Source: Methanococcus maripaludis (lineage in GTDB: Archaea > AGJL01 > Methanococci > Methanococcales > Methanococcaceae). Taken from it: 32,000 nucleotides of DNA. Position numbers and translations under genes: made by a program. Position 1 is the stretch's first letter. Each line of letters starts with the position of its first letter. Where the stretch lies: positions 1,682,919 through 1,714,918 of the forward strand of contig NZ_CP026606.1 in NCBI RefSeq assembly GCF_002945325.1, written 5' to 3'. Below are positions 8,403 through 32,000 of this stretch, in pieces. Below the pieces are notes generated by a model that saw nothing but the letters and a program-made list of their open reading frames with translations, had not been told where the DNA came from and did not search any database.

Positions 8403-9470
8403 TTAAATTAATTTTTCATCGCCAAGCGGTACAATATTTTTCTGTTCGTATTCCATGTACTCAATCCACTCTTTTTTACAGTCGCATTCGATATCAAGTT
8501 TTTCAATTTTTTGAGTAACTGTAAAATCATTGAATATATCTTTTATTTTATCGTTGCAGGTGCAGTCAATATTGTTATGTGCTCCCCTTTTTGAAGAAAC
8601 TCCTGCAGTATCACACATTACGAGAGCATCAGGGTTTTTAGACTTTACTTCTTTTAAAATTTCTAAAATACTCCATAAAAATGGTGGTCTGTACTGATTT
8701 TTTTTCCAGAGAGTTTCAATTAAAGTTCCTTTGTGAATTGATGCAGGACAGAAAGAAATTCTGCTGCAGCCCATTTCGATGCATTTGTTTGCAGTGTCTA
8801 TTGCATCAATAATTGCCTCTTTTTCGGAAATAAATGGGGGTTTTATCAAAATATATGCTTTTATTCCTACATCGTATTCTTTTGCGACGGAAAACGCATT
8901 TTCAATTGTTTTTGTAGGAACACCTTTGTGAATTGCAACATTTCTTATTTTTTCATTTAAACTTTCGATTCCAACACCGATTTCAATGTTGCATGAAAGA
9001 ATATTTTTTATCGATTCCATGTTTTCAGGAGTTACAAATTCAGCTCTTGATTCAATTGCAACTTCCTTTGCACCCATTTCTTCGATTCTTTTAAAGATAT
9101 ATTCTCTCGTTTCAAGAGGGATTTCAAAAGTATCCAAAAAACTACCTGACGTAAATAGTTTTATTGACATATTTTTATTGAGCTGATCTTTATATTTTTC
9201 AACTGCAGAATCGAACTGGTTTTTCAAGTTTTCAGAAGTAATTTCGGCAGGGGATGCGTCCATTAGGTAGCTGCACATCGTGCACCCTCCGCTATCGTAT
9301 GCCCATTTACAGCCCTTTGTTCTTAAAATTATTGTAAAGCTTTGTCCAAACGTTTTATCGCGAAAAACATCGTCTTGAATCCAAACTGCAATCGGATAAT
9401 CAGGATTTCTTTCTTTTCGTTTTTTAAGATGTTTTTCACGGATATTTTTTAAATAATCAGCCATAGACAT
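8403..9470 (-). CDS. Radical SAM protein, probably the archaeal TIGR01210/RaSEA-like family (archaeosine biosynthesis)
   Basis: Cys triad GC54KWAYDSGGC63TMC66SY plus a TIM-barrel-like core. GAGGAG RBS before ATG 9470. The family assignment is from memory. Confidence 0.55.
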   Translation of the reverse strand: MSMADYLKNIREKHLKKRKERNPDYPIAVWIQDDVFRDKTFGQSFTIILRTKGCKWAYDSGGCTMCSYLMDASPAEITSENLKNQFDSAVEKYKDQLNKNMSIKLFTSGSFLDTFEIPLETREYIFKRIEEMGAKEVAIESRAEFVTPENMESIKNILSCNIEIGVGIESLNEKIRNVAIHKGVPTKTIENAFSVAKEYDVGIKAYILIKPPFISEKEAIIDAIDTANKCIEMGCSRISFCPASIHKGTLIETLWKKNQYRPPFLWSILEILKEVKSKNPDALVMCDTAGVSSKRGAHNNIDCTCNDKIKDIFNDFTVTQKIEKLDIECDCKKEWIEYMEYEQKNIVPLGDEKLI

Positions 9471-26819: not shown

Positions 26820-27569
26820 TTATTCCATGCTGACGTATTTATTTCCTTTTAAGATGTTTTCAGAATCAAGAGATATATCATACAAACTATTATTCAATGC
26901 GGTGTTTGCAATTATACTATTATTTGTAGAACCCATAATTCCCCATATTCCAAAATTGGTATTGTATGAAACTTCATTTGTAATGAATCTGTTGCAGTTG
27001 GAGCCTTGAATGTCCAATCCAGCTTGATAATTGTAGTTTACAATGTTGTTGACAACTTTGTTTCCTGTTGATAAATCTACAGATATGCCCCAGGTATTAT
27101 TGCATACGAAATTGTCTTCGATATTGTTATTATCTGAGTACCATGCCATAATACCATCCATATTGTCTGAAGCATTATTTTTAAGAATTTTACATTCAGT
27201 AGCGTTGTTAATCCATATCCCGGAACCAAATTTGGATATCTGCATATCTTTAATGGTTACCTTGGAACAGTCGTACACGTATACTCCTGAGTCACCCATC
27301 CAGCCCCAATAGATATCATCCCCTTCGAGGTAGTTTCCATTTCCATCCAGTATTACATCATCTGCGTTTATTGTTATCGCAGTGCCTATGATTCCCGATT
27401 GGGATATATTCAATAGATATTTCCCAGAATCATTTATTGCATAAGGTAATGAATTTATGTAATTAGTATTTGTTCCCTTTTCCCCACCTGCTGCAGCACA
27501 TGCAATTGACATACTCACAAATACTGCGAGAGCCAAGGCTATTAATGGTTTATAACCAATTTTAGTCAT
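26820..27569 (-). CDS. Secreted right-handed parallel beta-helix (PbH1/NosD-like) repeat protein
   Basis: Repeated '..N.I..N....GI.....S..N' turns. Start set at ATG 27569 (MTKIGYKPLIALALAVFV..) with a GGGGGTGA RBS; the track's upstream extension has no support. Confidence 0.7.
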   Translation of the reverse strand: MTKIGYKPLIALALAVFVSMSIACAAAGGEKGTNTNYINSLPYAINDSGKYLLNISQSGIIGTAITINADDVILDGNGNYLEGDDIYWGWMGDSGVYVYDCSKVTIKDMQISKFGSGIWINNATECKILKNNASDNMDGIMAWYSDNNNIEDNFVCNNTWGISVDLSTGNKVVNNIVNYNYQAGLDIQGSNCNRFITNEVSYNTNFGIWGIMGSTNNSIIANTALNNSLYDISLDSENILKGNKYVSME

Positions 27570-27865
27570 TTTTAATTCACCCCCATGGTTACAATTAGAT
27601 TTATCCGTTTTATAATATTTAAAATTAATTAAAAAACGATTATAACACTTTAATAGTTTAATAACCAATTTATAACATTATTGATCGAAAAATAAAAAAA
27701 TATAATCTATATTTGTATAAAATACTGGTTTTAAACGTAAATTTATTAAAAATATGCAGAAAATACCTCCTACCTCCGATTTAAATAATATCTTTCCCAG
27801 AGTATCAAAAATTAATTATACTGTTTTAAAAATAATGTTTAATATGGGTTTGTGGGGGGATTGTC

Positions 27866-28222
27866 GTGTACACTTATCCCGTATTATTATCCGTAATTTT
27901 TATGGTAATTTTTGCAGGATGCCAATCAGAAAAGCCATTGGGGGATTCTACAGTTACGTTTCAAAACGAAACAACAGCGGTAGTATTGATAGAGGATTTT
28001 TCGTATAAGCCTGCAGTTGTGACTGTGAAAGTTGGAACAAAAGTTACATGGGTACAAAAAGATAGTGTAAGGCATACTGTAACATCAAATGACGGAATAT
28101 TTGATTCAGGACTTCTTTCAGAAGGAATATCTTGGGAATATACATTCAATGAAGTAGGGACGTATAATTACTACTGTATACCCCATCCTTATATGGAAGG
28201 AACGGTTGAAGTGGTAGAATGA
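27866..28222 (+). CDS. Type-1 (blue) copper protein, amicyanin/plastocyanin-like cupredoxin, probable lipoprotein
   Basis: Candidate Cu ligands are His in VRHTV plus C-I-P-H-P-Y-M (an amicyanin-type C-x2-H-x2-M loop). The N-terminal signal ends in the lipobox-like FAGC. GTG start after GGGGGGAT. Confidence 0.8.
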   Translation: MYTYPVLLSVIFMVIFAGCQSEKPLGDSTVTFQNETTAVVLIEDFSYKPAVVTVKVGTKVTWVQKDSVRHTVTSNDGIFDSGLLSEGISWEYTFNEVGTYNYYCIPHPYMEGTVEVVE

Positions 28223-28453: not shown

Positions 28454-28717
28454 ATGGATAAAAAATTTTTTGAATGCAAAGTTTGTGGGGACATTCATCA
28501 GGGTAAAAATGGGCCAAATCCCTGTCCAACCTGCGGATCAAAAGATTCCCAAAATGAAATCAAAGGATATACGATTGTAAAAAAATTCAGTGAATGCAAA
28601 GTATGTCAAGATTTTCACTGGGGTGAAAAAGCTCCAAGTCCATGCCCAACGTGCATGACAAAGGACTCTTACGTTGAAATTACAAAAGAAGAGCTTCCAG
28701 AAAAACTTGGAATGTAA
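28454..28717 (+). CDS. Tandem rubredoxin-like (rubrerythrin C-terminal type) metal-binding protein, 87 aa
   Basis: Two copies of C-K-V-C-x-D-x-H-x-G-x3-P-x-P-C-P-T-C. GGGGGT RBS. Confidence 0.7.
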   Translation: MDKKFFECKVCGDIHQGKNGPNPCPTCGSKDSQNEIKGYTIVKKFSECKVCQDFHWGEKAPSPCPTCMTKDSYVEITKEELPEKLGM

Positions 28718-29305: not shown

Positions 29306-29377
29306 GGGATTAAAATGGACAGTAAATTTAAAAATAGACTTAATTTAAAATATTTTGAAAAGATTGGGCGATATTGA

Positions 29378-29578: not shown

Positions 29579-29711
29579 GAAAAAGACGAATAAAAAAATG
29601 GAAAAATTTTATCGAAATACTTTTAAAATAAAAAGAAAGGCATCAGCAGATCATAAAATTGGCTCATCACAAGGTCAGCCGGGGATAACATCATCATTTG
29701 CCTTAATTCTT

Positions 29712-30233
29712 TTAAATGTACTGTCCGAGAATTTCTATAACTTCATTTTGAAGTTCTCTTTCGTCAATCGGATCCATTTCGATATTGGAATTTGCAATAA
29801 TATAAAACGGCATTTCGTTCTTTTCAATTGTTGATATATATATGTATTCTTCACCAGATTTTATACTCGTTTTTTCGACATTTCCCATGATTTTGTTTAG
29901 GGTCTGGAAAACACCACTGTACTGTCCAGCAACTTCATCCGGGTCTTTTAATGTGGAAATGATTGTCAAACCTTCTTCATTAACAACAGTAATATCTAAA
30001 AGGTCATGTGAAAGGGCAATTTCTAAAAGGTCGTAAGTGTCGGACGCTTTTTCAGGATTTTTTGAGACCGCCTGACTTTTTAATTTTTGAAGTCCTTCAA
30101 TTACTTCGAGTTCAAGTAATTCTTTTTCTTCATTTTGTACATTCTTTTTATCTTTTTTTAGTTTAAATAGTGTGTAGTATGAACCAAAAAAACCTGCACC
30201 AAGTGAAATTGTAAATAAACCCAAATTTTCCAT
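29712..30233 (-). CDS. N-terminally membrane-anchored protein with a Roadblock/LC7 (MglB-like) type domain
   Basis: TM helix LGLFTISLGAGFFGSYYTLF. The C-terminal ~110 aa follow the Roadblock alpha-beta-beta-alpha-beta-beta-beta-alpha pattern (..LDITVVNEEGLTIIST..). AAGGGGT RBS. Confidence 0.45.
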   Translation of the reverse strand: MENLGLFTISLGAGFFGSYYTLFKLKKDKKNVQNEEKELLELEVIEGLQKLKSQAVSKNPEKASDTYDLLEIALSHDLLDITVVNEEGLTIISTLKDPDEVAGQYSGVFQTLNKIMGNVEKTSIKSGEEYIYISTIEKNEMPFYIIANSNIEMDPIDERELQNEVIEILGQYI

Positions 30234-30263
30234 TTTTTAGACCCCTTTTAAATATTATATTGT

Positions 30264-30422
30264 TTATTTTAATTTTTGAAGCCCTTTTATTACTTCATCT
30301 TTTAATTCTTCGCGCTTTTTAGCCTTATCTTTCTTCTTTTTCTGTATAATTATTCTCAAAATGGAGAAAGAACATATAAAACCTATTCCAAGAGATATTG
30401 CGAACAGGTAGATGTTATTCAT
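30264..30422 (-). CDS. 52-aa single-TM protein, paralogous to the N-terminus of the downstream 173-aa protein
   Basis: Hand-translated: MNNIYLFAISLGIGFICSFSILRIIIQKKKKDKAKKREELKDEVIKGLQKLK*. AGAGGG RBS. It shares VI(E/K)GLQKLK and nucleotide-level similarity with 30078-30110. Confidence 0.5.
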   Translation of the reverse strand: MNNIYLFAISLGIGFICSFSILRIIIQKKKKDKAKKREELKDEVIKGLQKLK

Positions 30423-30479
30423 AAAAGCCCTCTGTTAAACTATGGGTACCATTATATTTTCTGGGATATTTAACCATTT

Positions 30480-32000
30480 TTATTTATATCTGCTGTATGA
30501 GGTTGTGAATTTTTCAACAGTAATATTTAAAAATTCAATTTCGACATTATTCATACCTAATATGTCGGAAATGTCTCTTTCAATTTTATCAGTATTTAAG
30601 CTGCTTTTTATAAATCCAAGCATTTTTTTAGGGACAACGATAATTGAACACTTGCATTTATATCCGTTATCTTCGGTTATGGACATATGGACTTCAAATT
30701 CAGAAATATCATGTACATTTTCTAAATATTCATATATTCCATGTTCAATTTTTTCTTTTAGTCCTTCAACGCCTGTTTTTTCTTTATTTGAATTTTTAGC
30801 TTTTATTTTATTAAGCTCTTCTTGAAGATCTATATCATATTTATTATGTGTTGATTTATGCTCTGTTTTAGTTTCTGTTTTATTCCCTGTTTTTTTATTA
30901 TTGACAGTAACATCTGAAGTCATTTCGATTATATATGAATCAAATAGATCTTCAATGTCTTTTTTAATAACCTCAGAATTTTCATCTGACGTCGTGTTAA
31001 CACAACACGTGGCAATAAATTCGTCGTTATCAGAATATTCTATCGAAAGTTCAGTTTCAAACTCTAAAATAGCGCTATTTTCGTTGAAATAATCATTTAT
31101 TTTTTCTAAGAGTTCGTTTTCTATTGCACCCATTTCAGTTTTTGAAGGTTCAAACACGTCATCTAACAGATTTTCAATCATATCTTCAGTAGGTGTTCGT
31201 ATACCTAATTTTTTCATCAGCTCTTCTCTTGAAATATCTTCTTCGACCTGTTGGGGGTTTTCAGTTTCAGAATCGTCTTTTTCAAGGTATTCATTAATAT
31301 CTTTTACCTCTTGAACATATTTTGGAAGTTCTGTTTTTGGCATCTCAATTTTTACAGGTTCTGATGGTTTAATGGAAATTACTGATTCAGGGTATTCTTC
31401 GATAAAATAATTCAATTTTGAATTGTTATATTCGTAAACATCAATTGCAAAATCATTATCTTCATTAATTATATCGTTAAACATTTTAAAAGCATCATTT
31501 CCGAAAAATAATTTATTTTCAGCCTGATAAACAGCAGTAACTGGTAAATTTCCATTGTATGCAACATATCCTCTATGGTAAGTTCCATCAATTTTTTTGA
31601 AGAGTTCTAAAAGGGTGTATTTTCCAAGGTATTTTTCAAAATCGTTAGAAACGCCCAATTTTATGGGTTTGCCTTCTGGAACGGATATTCTTCCATTATT
31701 TGGAGCAATTGCTTTTTTCTTTTCAACCGGACTTTTTTTAACAGTTTCATTTGTTAAAAAGAGCTTTTTATTTGAATTTTGCATCATGGATAACATGGAA
31801 TCTGTATATGAAAATATGTCAACAATTGCGCCAAGTTCTGCCATTTTCATAGCGTTTACAACAGCATCATTTCCGAAAAATTCTCCTTCGTAGTCAGAAT
31901 ATCCGCCAATGATTTTTTTATTGTTTAAAAAAAGATGGCTTTCCTTAAACTGTCCGTTGACTTTTAGGGATAGTCTAACATGTCCGATAAAATTTTCTGG
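30480..32000 (-). CDS. Large uncharacterised protein, 5'-truncated by the window edge: two PATAN/DUF4388-like N-terminal repeats, an acidic linker and two C-terminal repeat modules
   Basis: The frame stays open from the track's ATG 31850 to nt 32000 (50 more codons, no stop). Repeats of the type 'G.V......L....FGNDA.......A.VD.F.Y'. Confidence 0.6.
   Translation of the reverse strand, partial: PENFIGHVRLSLKVNGQFKESHLFLNNKKIIGGYSDYEGEFFGNDAVVNAMKMAELGAIVDIFSYTDSMLSMMQNSNKKLFLTNETVKKSPVEKKKAIAPNNGRISVPEGKPIKLGVSNDFEKYLGKYTLLELFKKIDGTYHRGYVAYNGNLPVTAVYQAENKLFFGNDAFKMFNDIINEDNDFAIDVYEYNNSKLNYFIEEYPESVISIKPSEPVKIEMPKTELPKYVQEVKDINEYLEKDDSETENPQQVEEDISREELMKKLGIRTPTEDMIENLLDDVFEPSKTEMGAIENELLEKINDYFNENSAILEFETELSIEYSDNDEFIATCCVNTTSDENSEVIKKDIEDLFDSYIIEMTSDVTVNNKKTGNKTETKTEHKSTHNKYDIDLQEELNKIKAKNSNKEKTGVEGLKEKIEHGIYEYLENVHDISEFEVHMSITEDNGYKCKCSIIVVPKKMLGFIKSSLNTDKIERDISDILGMNNVEIEFLNITVEKFTTSYSRYK

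Follow-up and report, generated by a model that had tools for sequence, protein, structure and literature searches.

Eukaryotic signaling and bacterial polarity both depend centrally on Roadblock platforms that keep small GTPases at membranes, Ragulator and MglB being the respective examples. A first-pass annotation of a 32,000-nucleotide (nt) stretch of DNA from Methanococcus maripaludis (NCBI RefSeq assembly GCF_002945325.1, contig NZ_CP026606.1, positions 1,682,919 to 1,714,918 of the forward strand; referred to here as the window and numbered from its first letter) proposed that the last genes of this stretch encode a comparable system, namely, a protein with PATAN-like repeats, a small membrane protein, and a membrane-tethered Roadblock protein, with a GTPase gene possibly lying just beyond. 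The question raised by this locus is what these genes encode and whether their products might act together at the membrane.

Three co-directional open reading frames (ORFs) were found on the minus strand, as annotated. Gene A (30480..>32000), a member of the DUF2226 family, contributes 506 codons to the window (residues 23 to 528 of 528). Gene B (30264..30422) encodes 52 amino acids (aa) comprising one transmembrane (TM) segment and a juxtamembrane helix, and gene C (29712..30233) encodes a predicted 173-aa membrane-anchored Roadblock/LC7 protein of the MglB family. M. maripaludis homologues of the window proteins had 87 to 99% identity. We propose, with a confidence somewhat short of even, that genes A and C form a conserved two-component module across Methanococcales, to which gene B adds a third component within the M. 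maripaludis group, and that a membrane-tethered Roadblock platform would recruit a DUF2226 adaptor in order to regulate or position a nucleoside triphosphatase (NTPase). If true, a self-anchored Roadblock protein with a PATAN-sized adaptor would represent a simple archaeal version of such platforms in a genetically tractable methanogen, and the uncharacterized archaeal DUF2226 family would for the first time be given a functional context, together with a hypothesis that can be tested. The practical value is moderate, as the Roadblock identity of gene C is already on record and the functional link to an NTPase is one that we infer.

Gene C and the Roadblock/LC7 fold

The Roadblock assignment was upheld for gene C by Pfam matches among orthologues, profile matches in PDB, and Foldseek, all of which agreed. 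Nine of 13 gene C family members, scanned singly, matched the Pfam Robl_LC7 model (PF03259), with a best E value of 1.3e-6. When a profile of the family was searched against PDB, the best matches were dynein Roadblock chains (E values of 0.004 to 0.05); dynein and archaeal Robl_LC7 proteins together had E values of 0.004 to 0.6, and the alignment of the family profile with dynein Roadblock spanned the VVNEEGLxIxST strand pair. An AlphaFold2 (AF2) model had the topology alpha-beta-beta-alpha-beta-beta-beta plus a C-terminal helix. Foldseek analysis with this low-confidence model against PDB returned Roadblock, MglB, LAMTOR, or Rag C-terminal domains for all of the top 50 matches, with E values of 1e-4 to 2e-3 and target-normalized TM-scores of 0.5 to 0.66 for single-domain Roadblock chains and about 0.3 for longer Rag-type chains. 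Overall, these analyses supported the prediction that gene C encodes a Roadblock/LC7 (MglB-family) protein. The putative domain, supported by the AF2 topology, Foldseek, and the profile alignment with dynein Roadblock, covers residues 63 to 169 (29727..30047, minus strand).

The anchor segment, some 20 residues in length (residues 4 to 23; 30165..30224, minus strand), is uncharged and is followed by a K-rich stretch, and a hydrophobic N terminus with a K-rich flank was common to all gene C orthologues. Hydropathy, calculated as the Kyte-Doolittle 19-residue mean, was moderate for this segment in the window protein (1.19) and across the genus Methanococcus (1.19 to 1.42). Strong hydrophobicity was detected in the other Methanococcales genera (1.8 to 3.05). 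Since the K-rich stretch comes after the N-terminal segment, the positive-inside rule would place the Roadblock domain in the cytoplasm.

The gene C family was small, with only 11 clusters detected in a profile search of 1.84 billion representative proteins. All members that were traced to contigs belonged either to Methanococcales or to a metagenomic contig with the same gene pair, and on this distribution genes A and C seem to occur together as a pair specific to the lineage. The Roadblock identity of gene C is already known. Its 90% cluster contains CAF30548.1 and GYY_05790 (strain X1), and the latter matches the X1 entry GY_05790, which is listed beside MMP0992 of strain S2 as an orphan MglB homologue in the supplement of Wuichet and Sogaard-Andersen 2014 (PMC4316618). 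We deduced from consecutive accession numbering that CAF30548.1 is MMP0992, and gene C is, in part by this deduction, the orthologue of M. maripaludis S2 MMP0992. Some family members carry the database name "Roadblock/LAMTOR2 domain-containing protein." The description of the locus as unstudied was therefore largely correct for function but not for gene C as a catalogued sequence. No paper mentioning DUF2226, MMP0991, or MMP0992 was found in a literature search, MMP0992 standing in the PMC4316618 supplement, and the supplement of an M. maripaludis randomly barcoded transposon sequencing (RB-TnSeq) preprint contained nothing on these genes. Gene A belongs to a named but unstudied Pfam family. 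What appears to be new is the strict conservation of a DUF2226 gene paired with a Roadblock gene, the presence of a membrane anchor within the Roadblock protein itself, and the duplication of this anchor as a micro-protein.

Conservation of the gene A-gene C pair

Gene A was located directly upstream of gene C in every sufficiently long locus, comprising those of M. maripaludis (two lineages), M. vannielii, Methanothermococcus (three), Methanocaldococcus villosus, Methanocaldococcus sp. 16A, and two further contigs. The synteny check proposed with the first-pass annotation thus showed a pair that is syntenic across Methanococcus, Methanothermococcus, and Methanocaldococcus. The gap between the two genes ranged from 8 to 113 nt, being 8 to 17 nt outside Methanococcus except for 50 nt in Methanocaldococcus sp. 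16A and reaching 113 nt in M. vannielii. A scan of genome contigs with a Methanococcus-only alignment gave no match.

The gene downstream of gene C was genus dependent, with an HTH_3 regulator in Methanococcus, a beta-CASP nuclease in Methanocaldococcus, and a TRAM protein in contig L009. On the other side, beyond nt 32000, the genes encode a D-aminoacyl-tRNA deacylase, topoisomerase VI B, two methyltransferases, a DUF166 protein, and a prismane protein. In most Methanococcales, an AIRC-domain gene (PF00731; ∼255 aa) is found directly upstream of the DUF2226 gene (L026:1404-2171, L025:1616-2383, and L007:8085-8870) and overlaps it by a few nucleotides in contigs L007 and L008; the window lineage has a 380-bp AT-rich spacer (L003:7790-8168) in its place.

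Gene order of this kind could also have been inherited in a slowly rearranging order, such that genes A and C are not functional partners, gene C being an orphan Roadblock protein whose role is unrelated and gene A acting on its own in the cytoplasm. Two other upstream neighbors, the deacylase and AIRC genes, are likewise conserved across genera despite having no obvious functional link, and a DUF2226 gene of Hydrothermarchaeota, described below, has no Roadblock neighbor. We nevertheless regard this explanation as unlikely: the pair stays contiguous, with gaps down to 8 to 17 nt outside Methanococcus, while the flank downstream of gene C varies by genus, and the window lineage lost the AIRC gene yet kept the pair.

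Domain structure of gene A

Gene A had been described as running off the window. The full length, as read from near-identical contigs (L003:8169-9755), is 528 aa, so that 22 residues are missing, with the start codon located 66 nt past the end of the window. The protein is a clear member of the Pfam family DUF2226 (PF09987), with an E value of 3e-18 and a score of 66.7 bits against a cutoff of 22; the match reached profile position 241, and by this profile the N-domain, the helical motif, and the C-domain all match. Orthologues within Methanococcus had 48 to 96% identity, and a hydropathy scan detected no TM segment. An AF2 model (mean pLDDT [predicted local distance difference test] of 66, with folded parts mostly at 70 to 88) indicated four domains, N1, N2, C1, and C2, joined by disordered acidic or basic linkers.

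The predicted repeats N1 (31773..32000, minus strand; residues 23 to 98 in the window, of a domain covering residues ∼7 to 98; AF2 block-mean pLDDT of ∼64 to 88) and N2 (31395..31670, minus strand; residues 133 to 224; local hmmsearch domain E value of about 1e-39) have the same fold, each with the AF2 topology beta-alpha-beta-beta-beta-alpha-beta-alpha. Two N-terminal repeats of ∼65 aa had been noted; the repeats are real but are ∼100 aa in length. Pairwise BLASTP of N1 and N2 gave an E value of 6e-5 with 25% identity over ∼95 residues, and each independently matched DUF2226 profile positions 5 to 108. Conservation across genera in the gene A family was highest between N2 and C1, in the stretch ISREELMKKLGI..P..e.Ie.ll..vfePS, which contains the helical motif ISREELMKKLGIRTPTxDMIENLLDDVFEPS (31131..31238, minus strand; residues ∼277 to 312). 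This motif, a hallmark of the DUF2226 family, corresponds to profile positions 146 to 189, which were matched by eight of eight tested sequences, including Hydrothermarchaeota HEAT-repeat proteins.

The C-terminal domains C1 (30900..31142, minus strand; residues 309 to 389; AF2 pLDDT of ∼73 to 85) and C2 (30516..30770, minus strand; residues 433 to 517) were both predicted by AF2 to have an alpha-beta-beta-alpha-beta arrangement. Orthologues in Methanocaldococcus and Methanothermococcus are 360 to 401 aa in length with N1, N2, the motif, and a single C domain; the second C domain is therefore an addition specific to Methanococcus. The Methanococcales version of DUF2226 thus has a duplicated N-domain, and that of Methanococcus also has a duplicated C-domain. 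Foldseek matches of C1 and C2 to FliF/EscJ ring-building motifs and CDF-transporter C-terminal domains had low TM-scores and reflected a generic alpha-beta-beta-alpha-beta arrangement, and no function was inferred from them. Matches of the N-domain to designer pentatricopeptide repeats in PDB profile searches were an artifact of 10 summed subthreshold repeats.

The sole DUF2226 gene found outside Methanococcales was that of "Candidatus Pyrohabitans" (Hydrothermarchaeota), whose product joins the N-domain and helical motif to HEAT_PBS repeats. The gene order in this lineage (L015:3523-9838 and L016:1947-8201) was a chemoreceptor, a HEAT protein with an SREELMKKLNI motif, the DUF2226-HEAT_PBS fusion, and a MinD/ParA ATPase; only one close relative of this locus was returned by a metagenome scan. 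This context suggests that the DUF2226 N-domain and motif may constitute a portable module tied to positioning or taxis systems.

Possible relationship of the N-domain to PATAN

The N-terminal repeats of gene A had been tentatively assigned to PATAN (DUF4388; PF14332), and this assignment was not demonstrated, as there was no PF14332 match and the profile-profile similarity was weak. PF14332 was unmatched even at E values of ≤10 in a scan of 14 N-domains, three consensus sequences, and two distant homologues, while eight Deinococcus sequences, serving as a positive control, matched it with E values of 6e-10 to 3e-4. These eight DUF4388 proteins, from Deinococcus plasmids and each confirmed against PF14332, were reached from a PATAN consensus through one weak tblastn match, the only one found, on an annotated DUF4388 gene, which was used only to fetch real sequences. 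The profile built from them is shallow and limited to Deinococcus, and hhalign of the gene A N-domain against it produced a score of 15.4 (P = 0.064). With a greedier setting, the alignment was colinear over 98 columns and in the register of the originally noted PATAN motif. None of 200 column-shuffled profiles reached the hhalign score in a control that was lenient (mean, 8.8; standard deviation, 1.6; maximum, 14.4). A sequence search found no solved PATAN structure. These comparisons are suggestive, but not proof, of a relationship between the DUF2226 N-domain and PATAN.

Gene B and a probable A-B-C transcription unit

The description of gene B as a 52-aa single-TM protein was accurate: the segment is strongly hydrophobic, with a mean of 2.22, and is followed by nine K/R within 15 residues. 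Anchor hydropathy for gene B was 2.1 to 2.2, unlike the weaker gene C anchor in Methanococcus. Not detected in the first-pass annotation was that gene B is a paralogue of residues 1 to 52 of gene C, with an alignment that includes the TM segment as well as the helix E-(V/I)-I-(E/K)-G-L-Q-K-L-K. Gene B matched the hidden Markov model of the gene C family with an E value of 1.6e-12 locally and 1.6e-4 against 1.84 billion proteins. At the DNA level, gene B (30264..30422, minus strand) duplicates gene C in part and in tandem, copying its 5' end (30078..30233, minus strand), and 27 of the last 30 nt are identical. The gene was absent from M. vannielii, where the gap between genes A and C is only 113 nt, and from other genera, being confined to M. 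maripaludis-group loci.

The restriction of gene B to this group, together with its termination exactly where the similarity to gene C stops and the 27/30 identity of its last nucleotides, would be consistent with a nonfunctional remnant of a partial tandem duplication that encodes no real protein. This interpretation appears unlikely in view of an ORF that is intact at 52 codons in seven of seven M. maripaludis-type loci despite 11 amino acid differences between lineages and that is preceded by its own GAGGG motif. Furthermore, the ratio of nonsynonymous to synonymous substitution rates (dN/dS) between two M. maripaludis lineages was 0.27, close to the value of 0.21 for the matching part of gene C, a ratio which indicates that gene B is maintained under purifying selection. 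Gene B probably coassembles with gene C through the TM segment and stalk.

Each of the three genes had been credited with a good Shine-Dalgarno (SD) sequence. G-rich SD-like motifs were present for gene B (GAGGG) and gene C (AGGGG), but the start of gene A is outside the window and no SD sequence is visible there; in a near-identical contig, the sequence preceding the ATG is GTGGTAAT. The short intergenic gaps of 57 nt between genes A and B and 30 nt between genes B and C suggest cotranscription of A-B-C. The convergent intergenic spacer after gene C (29579..29711), in which T-rich runs were read directly from the sequence, is probably the end of this transcription unit.

Candidate NTPase partners

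The expectation that a small GTPase gene would be found just past nt 32000 was refuted, as deacylase, topoisomerase VI B, and methyltransferase genes are present there instead. No GTPase gene was detected within about 8 to 10 kb at the window locus or in seven related loci, and a combined motif and phmmer screen of 234 ORFs from related loci detected no small GTPase. A MinD/ParA-like P-loop ORF was observed ∼3 kb upstream in Methanocaldococcus sp. 16A. Each listed Methanococcales genome has one MglA-group-4 GTPase gene beside a gene for a soluble MglB (MMP1714, MJ_1339, Mevan_1016, and Metok_0410), and in M. maripaludis MMP1714 and its own MglB are distant from the A-B-C locus (PMC4316618). 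By family precedent, this distant MglA-group-4 GTPase would be the most likely client of genes A and C, with a MinD or secretion-type ATPase as the main alternative.

The absence of an adjacent GTPase gene in all loci examined is also compatible with a membrane scaffold that is independent of GTPases. Provided that they are PATAN-like, the DUF2226 N-domains would in this case bind an ATPase of the secretion type or the ParA/MinD type, candidates being a MinD homologue and the ATPase for assembly of the archaellum or type IV pilus, and the Roadblock dimer would serve for membrane attachment only. In cyanobacteria, PatA-type regulators bind the pilus motor ATPase PilB1 through their PATAN domains (bioRxiv 10.1101/2021.06.11.447907), and both the MinD/ParA ATPase and chemoreceptor genes adjoining the sole non-Methanococcales DUF2226 locus and the P-loop ORF in Methanocaldococcus sp. 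16A would fit this arrangement. The PATAN homology of gene A is unproven, however, the association with MinD was seen in one lineage, whose protein has a different C-terminal part (HEAT repeats), and Roadblock domains are best known as GTPase partners, so that we consider an ATPase-binding scaffold to be rather unlikely, though deserving of some weight.

A possible membrane platform

In the platform that we tentatively prefer, the N-terminal anchor and a charged helical stalk would keep the Roadblock domain of gene C at the membrane on its cytoplasmic side, and gene C would dimerize, as other Roadblock proteins do. The resulting platform would recruit to the membrane the soluble DUF2226 adaptor encoded by gene A, in which the helical motif is preceded by two PATAN-sized N-terminal domains and followed by one or two C-terminal domains of the alpha-beta-beta-alpha-beta type. 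Gene B, as a duplicate of the gene C anchor and stalk, would coassemble with gene C. Genes A and C together would then regulate or position an NTPase, the likeliest client being the single MglA-group-4 small GTPase of the genome (the MMP1714 orthologue), whose gene is found at another locus together with that of a soluble MglB of its own; gene C would act as an accessory Roadblock protein of the MglC or Ragulator type.

A number of observations weigh against this proposal. The gene C protein of the window, scanned alone, matched no Pfam or NCBIfam model, its AF2 model was of low confidence (mean pLDDT of 54), and the hydrophobicity of its anchor is weak in Methanococcus (1.19). The relationship of gene A to PATAN is statistically unproven. 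As genes A and C were traced in one order only, slow genome rearrangement could account for part of their conserved adjacency, and the deacylase and AIRC genes are likewise conserved neighbors of the pair. The Hydrothermarchaeota context of DUF2226 is known from a single lineage. No NTPase gene was adjacent to the pair in any locus examined, and the suggested link to MglA comes from family precedent alone.

Comparison with known systems

MglB and MglC of the MglA polarity module (Myxococcus and Thermus) have the same fold as that predicted for gene C, and MglB structures (6hjm, 1j3w, and 3t12) were among its top Foldseek matches. Like MglB, gene C has a C-terminal helix after the Roadblock core; moreover, the host genome contains an MglA-group-4 GTPase, and gene C is catalogued as an orphan MglB homologue. 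It differs from MglB and MglC in having an N-terminal membrane anchor and charged stalk, in not being located beside mglA, in having a DUF2226 partner gene, and in falling, as the window protein, below the Pfam Robl_LC7 thresholds.

Ragulator (LAMTOR) and the Streptomyces conservon CvnA-D contain membrane-held Roadblock-fold dimers that form a platform for small GTPases, the conservon forming a membrane-associated complex. The Foldseek matches of gene C included the Streptomyces Roadblock structure 3kye as well as LAMTOR and Rag C-terminal domains. The anchor is an intrinsic hydrophobic segment in gene C, whereas it is a lipidated subunit in Ragulator and a sensor kinase in the conservon, and the A-B-C cluster, unlike these systems, has no GTPase or kinase gene.

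Bacterial PATAN genes adjoin mglB and mglA, as at Aquifex aq_1844 (gene order MglA, PATAN, MglB). The arrangement of genes A and C resembles this in that a gene for a domain of ∼105 to 120 aa adjoins a Roadblock gene, and in hhalign the PATAN motif and secondary-structure order were colinear with those of the gene A N-domain. In contrast to bacterial PATAN, gene A had no PF14332 match and an hhalign P value of only 0.064, and the DUF2226 domain is duplicated and followed by the SREELMKKLGI motif and alpha-beta-beta-alpha-beta domains rather than by a receiver domain.

The Dip divisome-positioning GTPase system has been reported to be absent from Methanococci (bioRxiv 10.64898/2026.05.19.726155), which leaves this order without a known division-site positioning system. 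The Dip components (GTPase DipA, DUF2073 protein DipB, and Zn-ribbon protein DipC) were rejected as an identity for the cluster, as the families differ and the system is reported absent from this group. A more speculative extension of the platform, which we regard as improbable, is that DUF2226 is the archaeal counterpart of PATAN and that, with a tethered Roadblock dimer, it would form a Ragulator-like platform placing the action of the MglA-group-4 GTPase and hence the division site or the motility machinery.

Other observations in the window

In most M. maripaludis contigs, a 128-aa ORF is present between the genes for the HTH_3 regulator and a 143-aa membrane protein (L001:10852-11238). 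This ORF was absent from the window (29306..29377) and from contig L006, which indicates an indel polymorphism. An 87-aa protein with two rubredoxin-like zinc ribbons, for which RUBY_RBDX was matched twice, is encoded at 28454..28717 (plus strand). A gene for a NosD-like beta-helix protein (26820..27668, minus strand), whose length differs between strains (201 to 282 aa), neighbors a gene for a plastocyanin/cupredoxin-type copper protein (27866..28222, plus strand) in this methanogen. Finally, a 355-aa ORF (8403..9470, minus strand) with no Pfam match at an E value of 1e-5 is located between an archaeal histone-fold gene and a carbamoyl-phosphate synthase gene.

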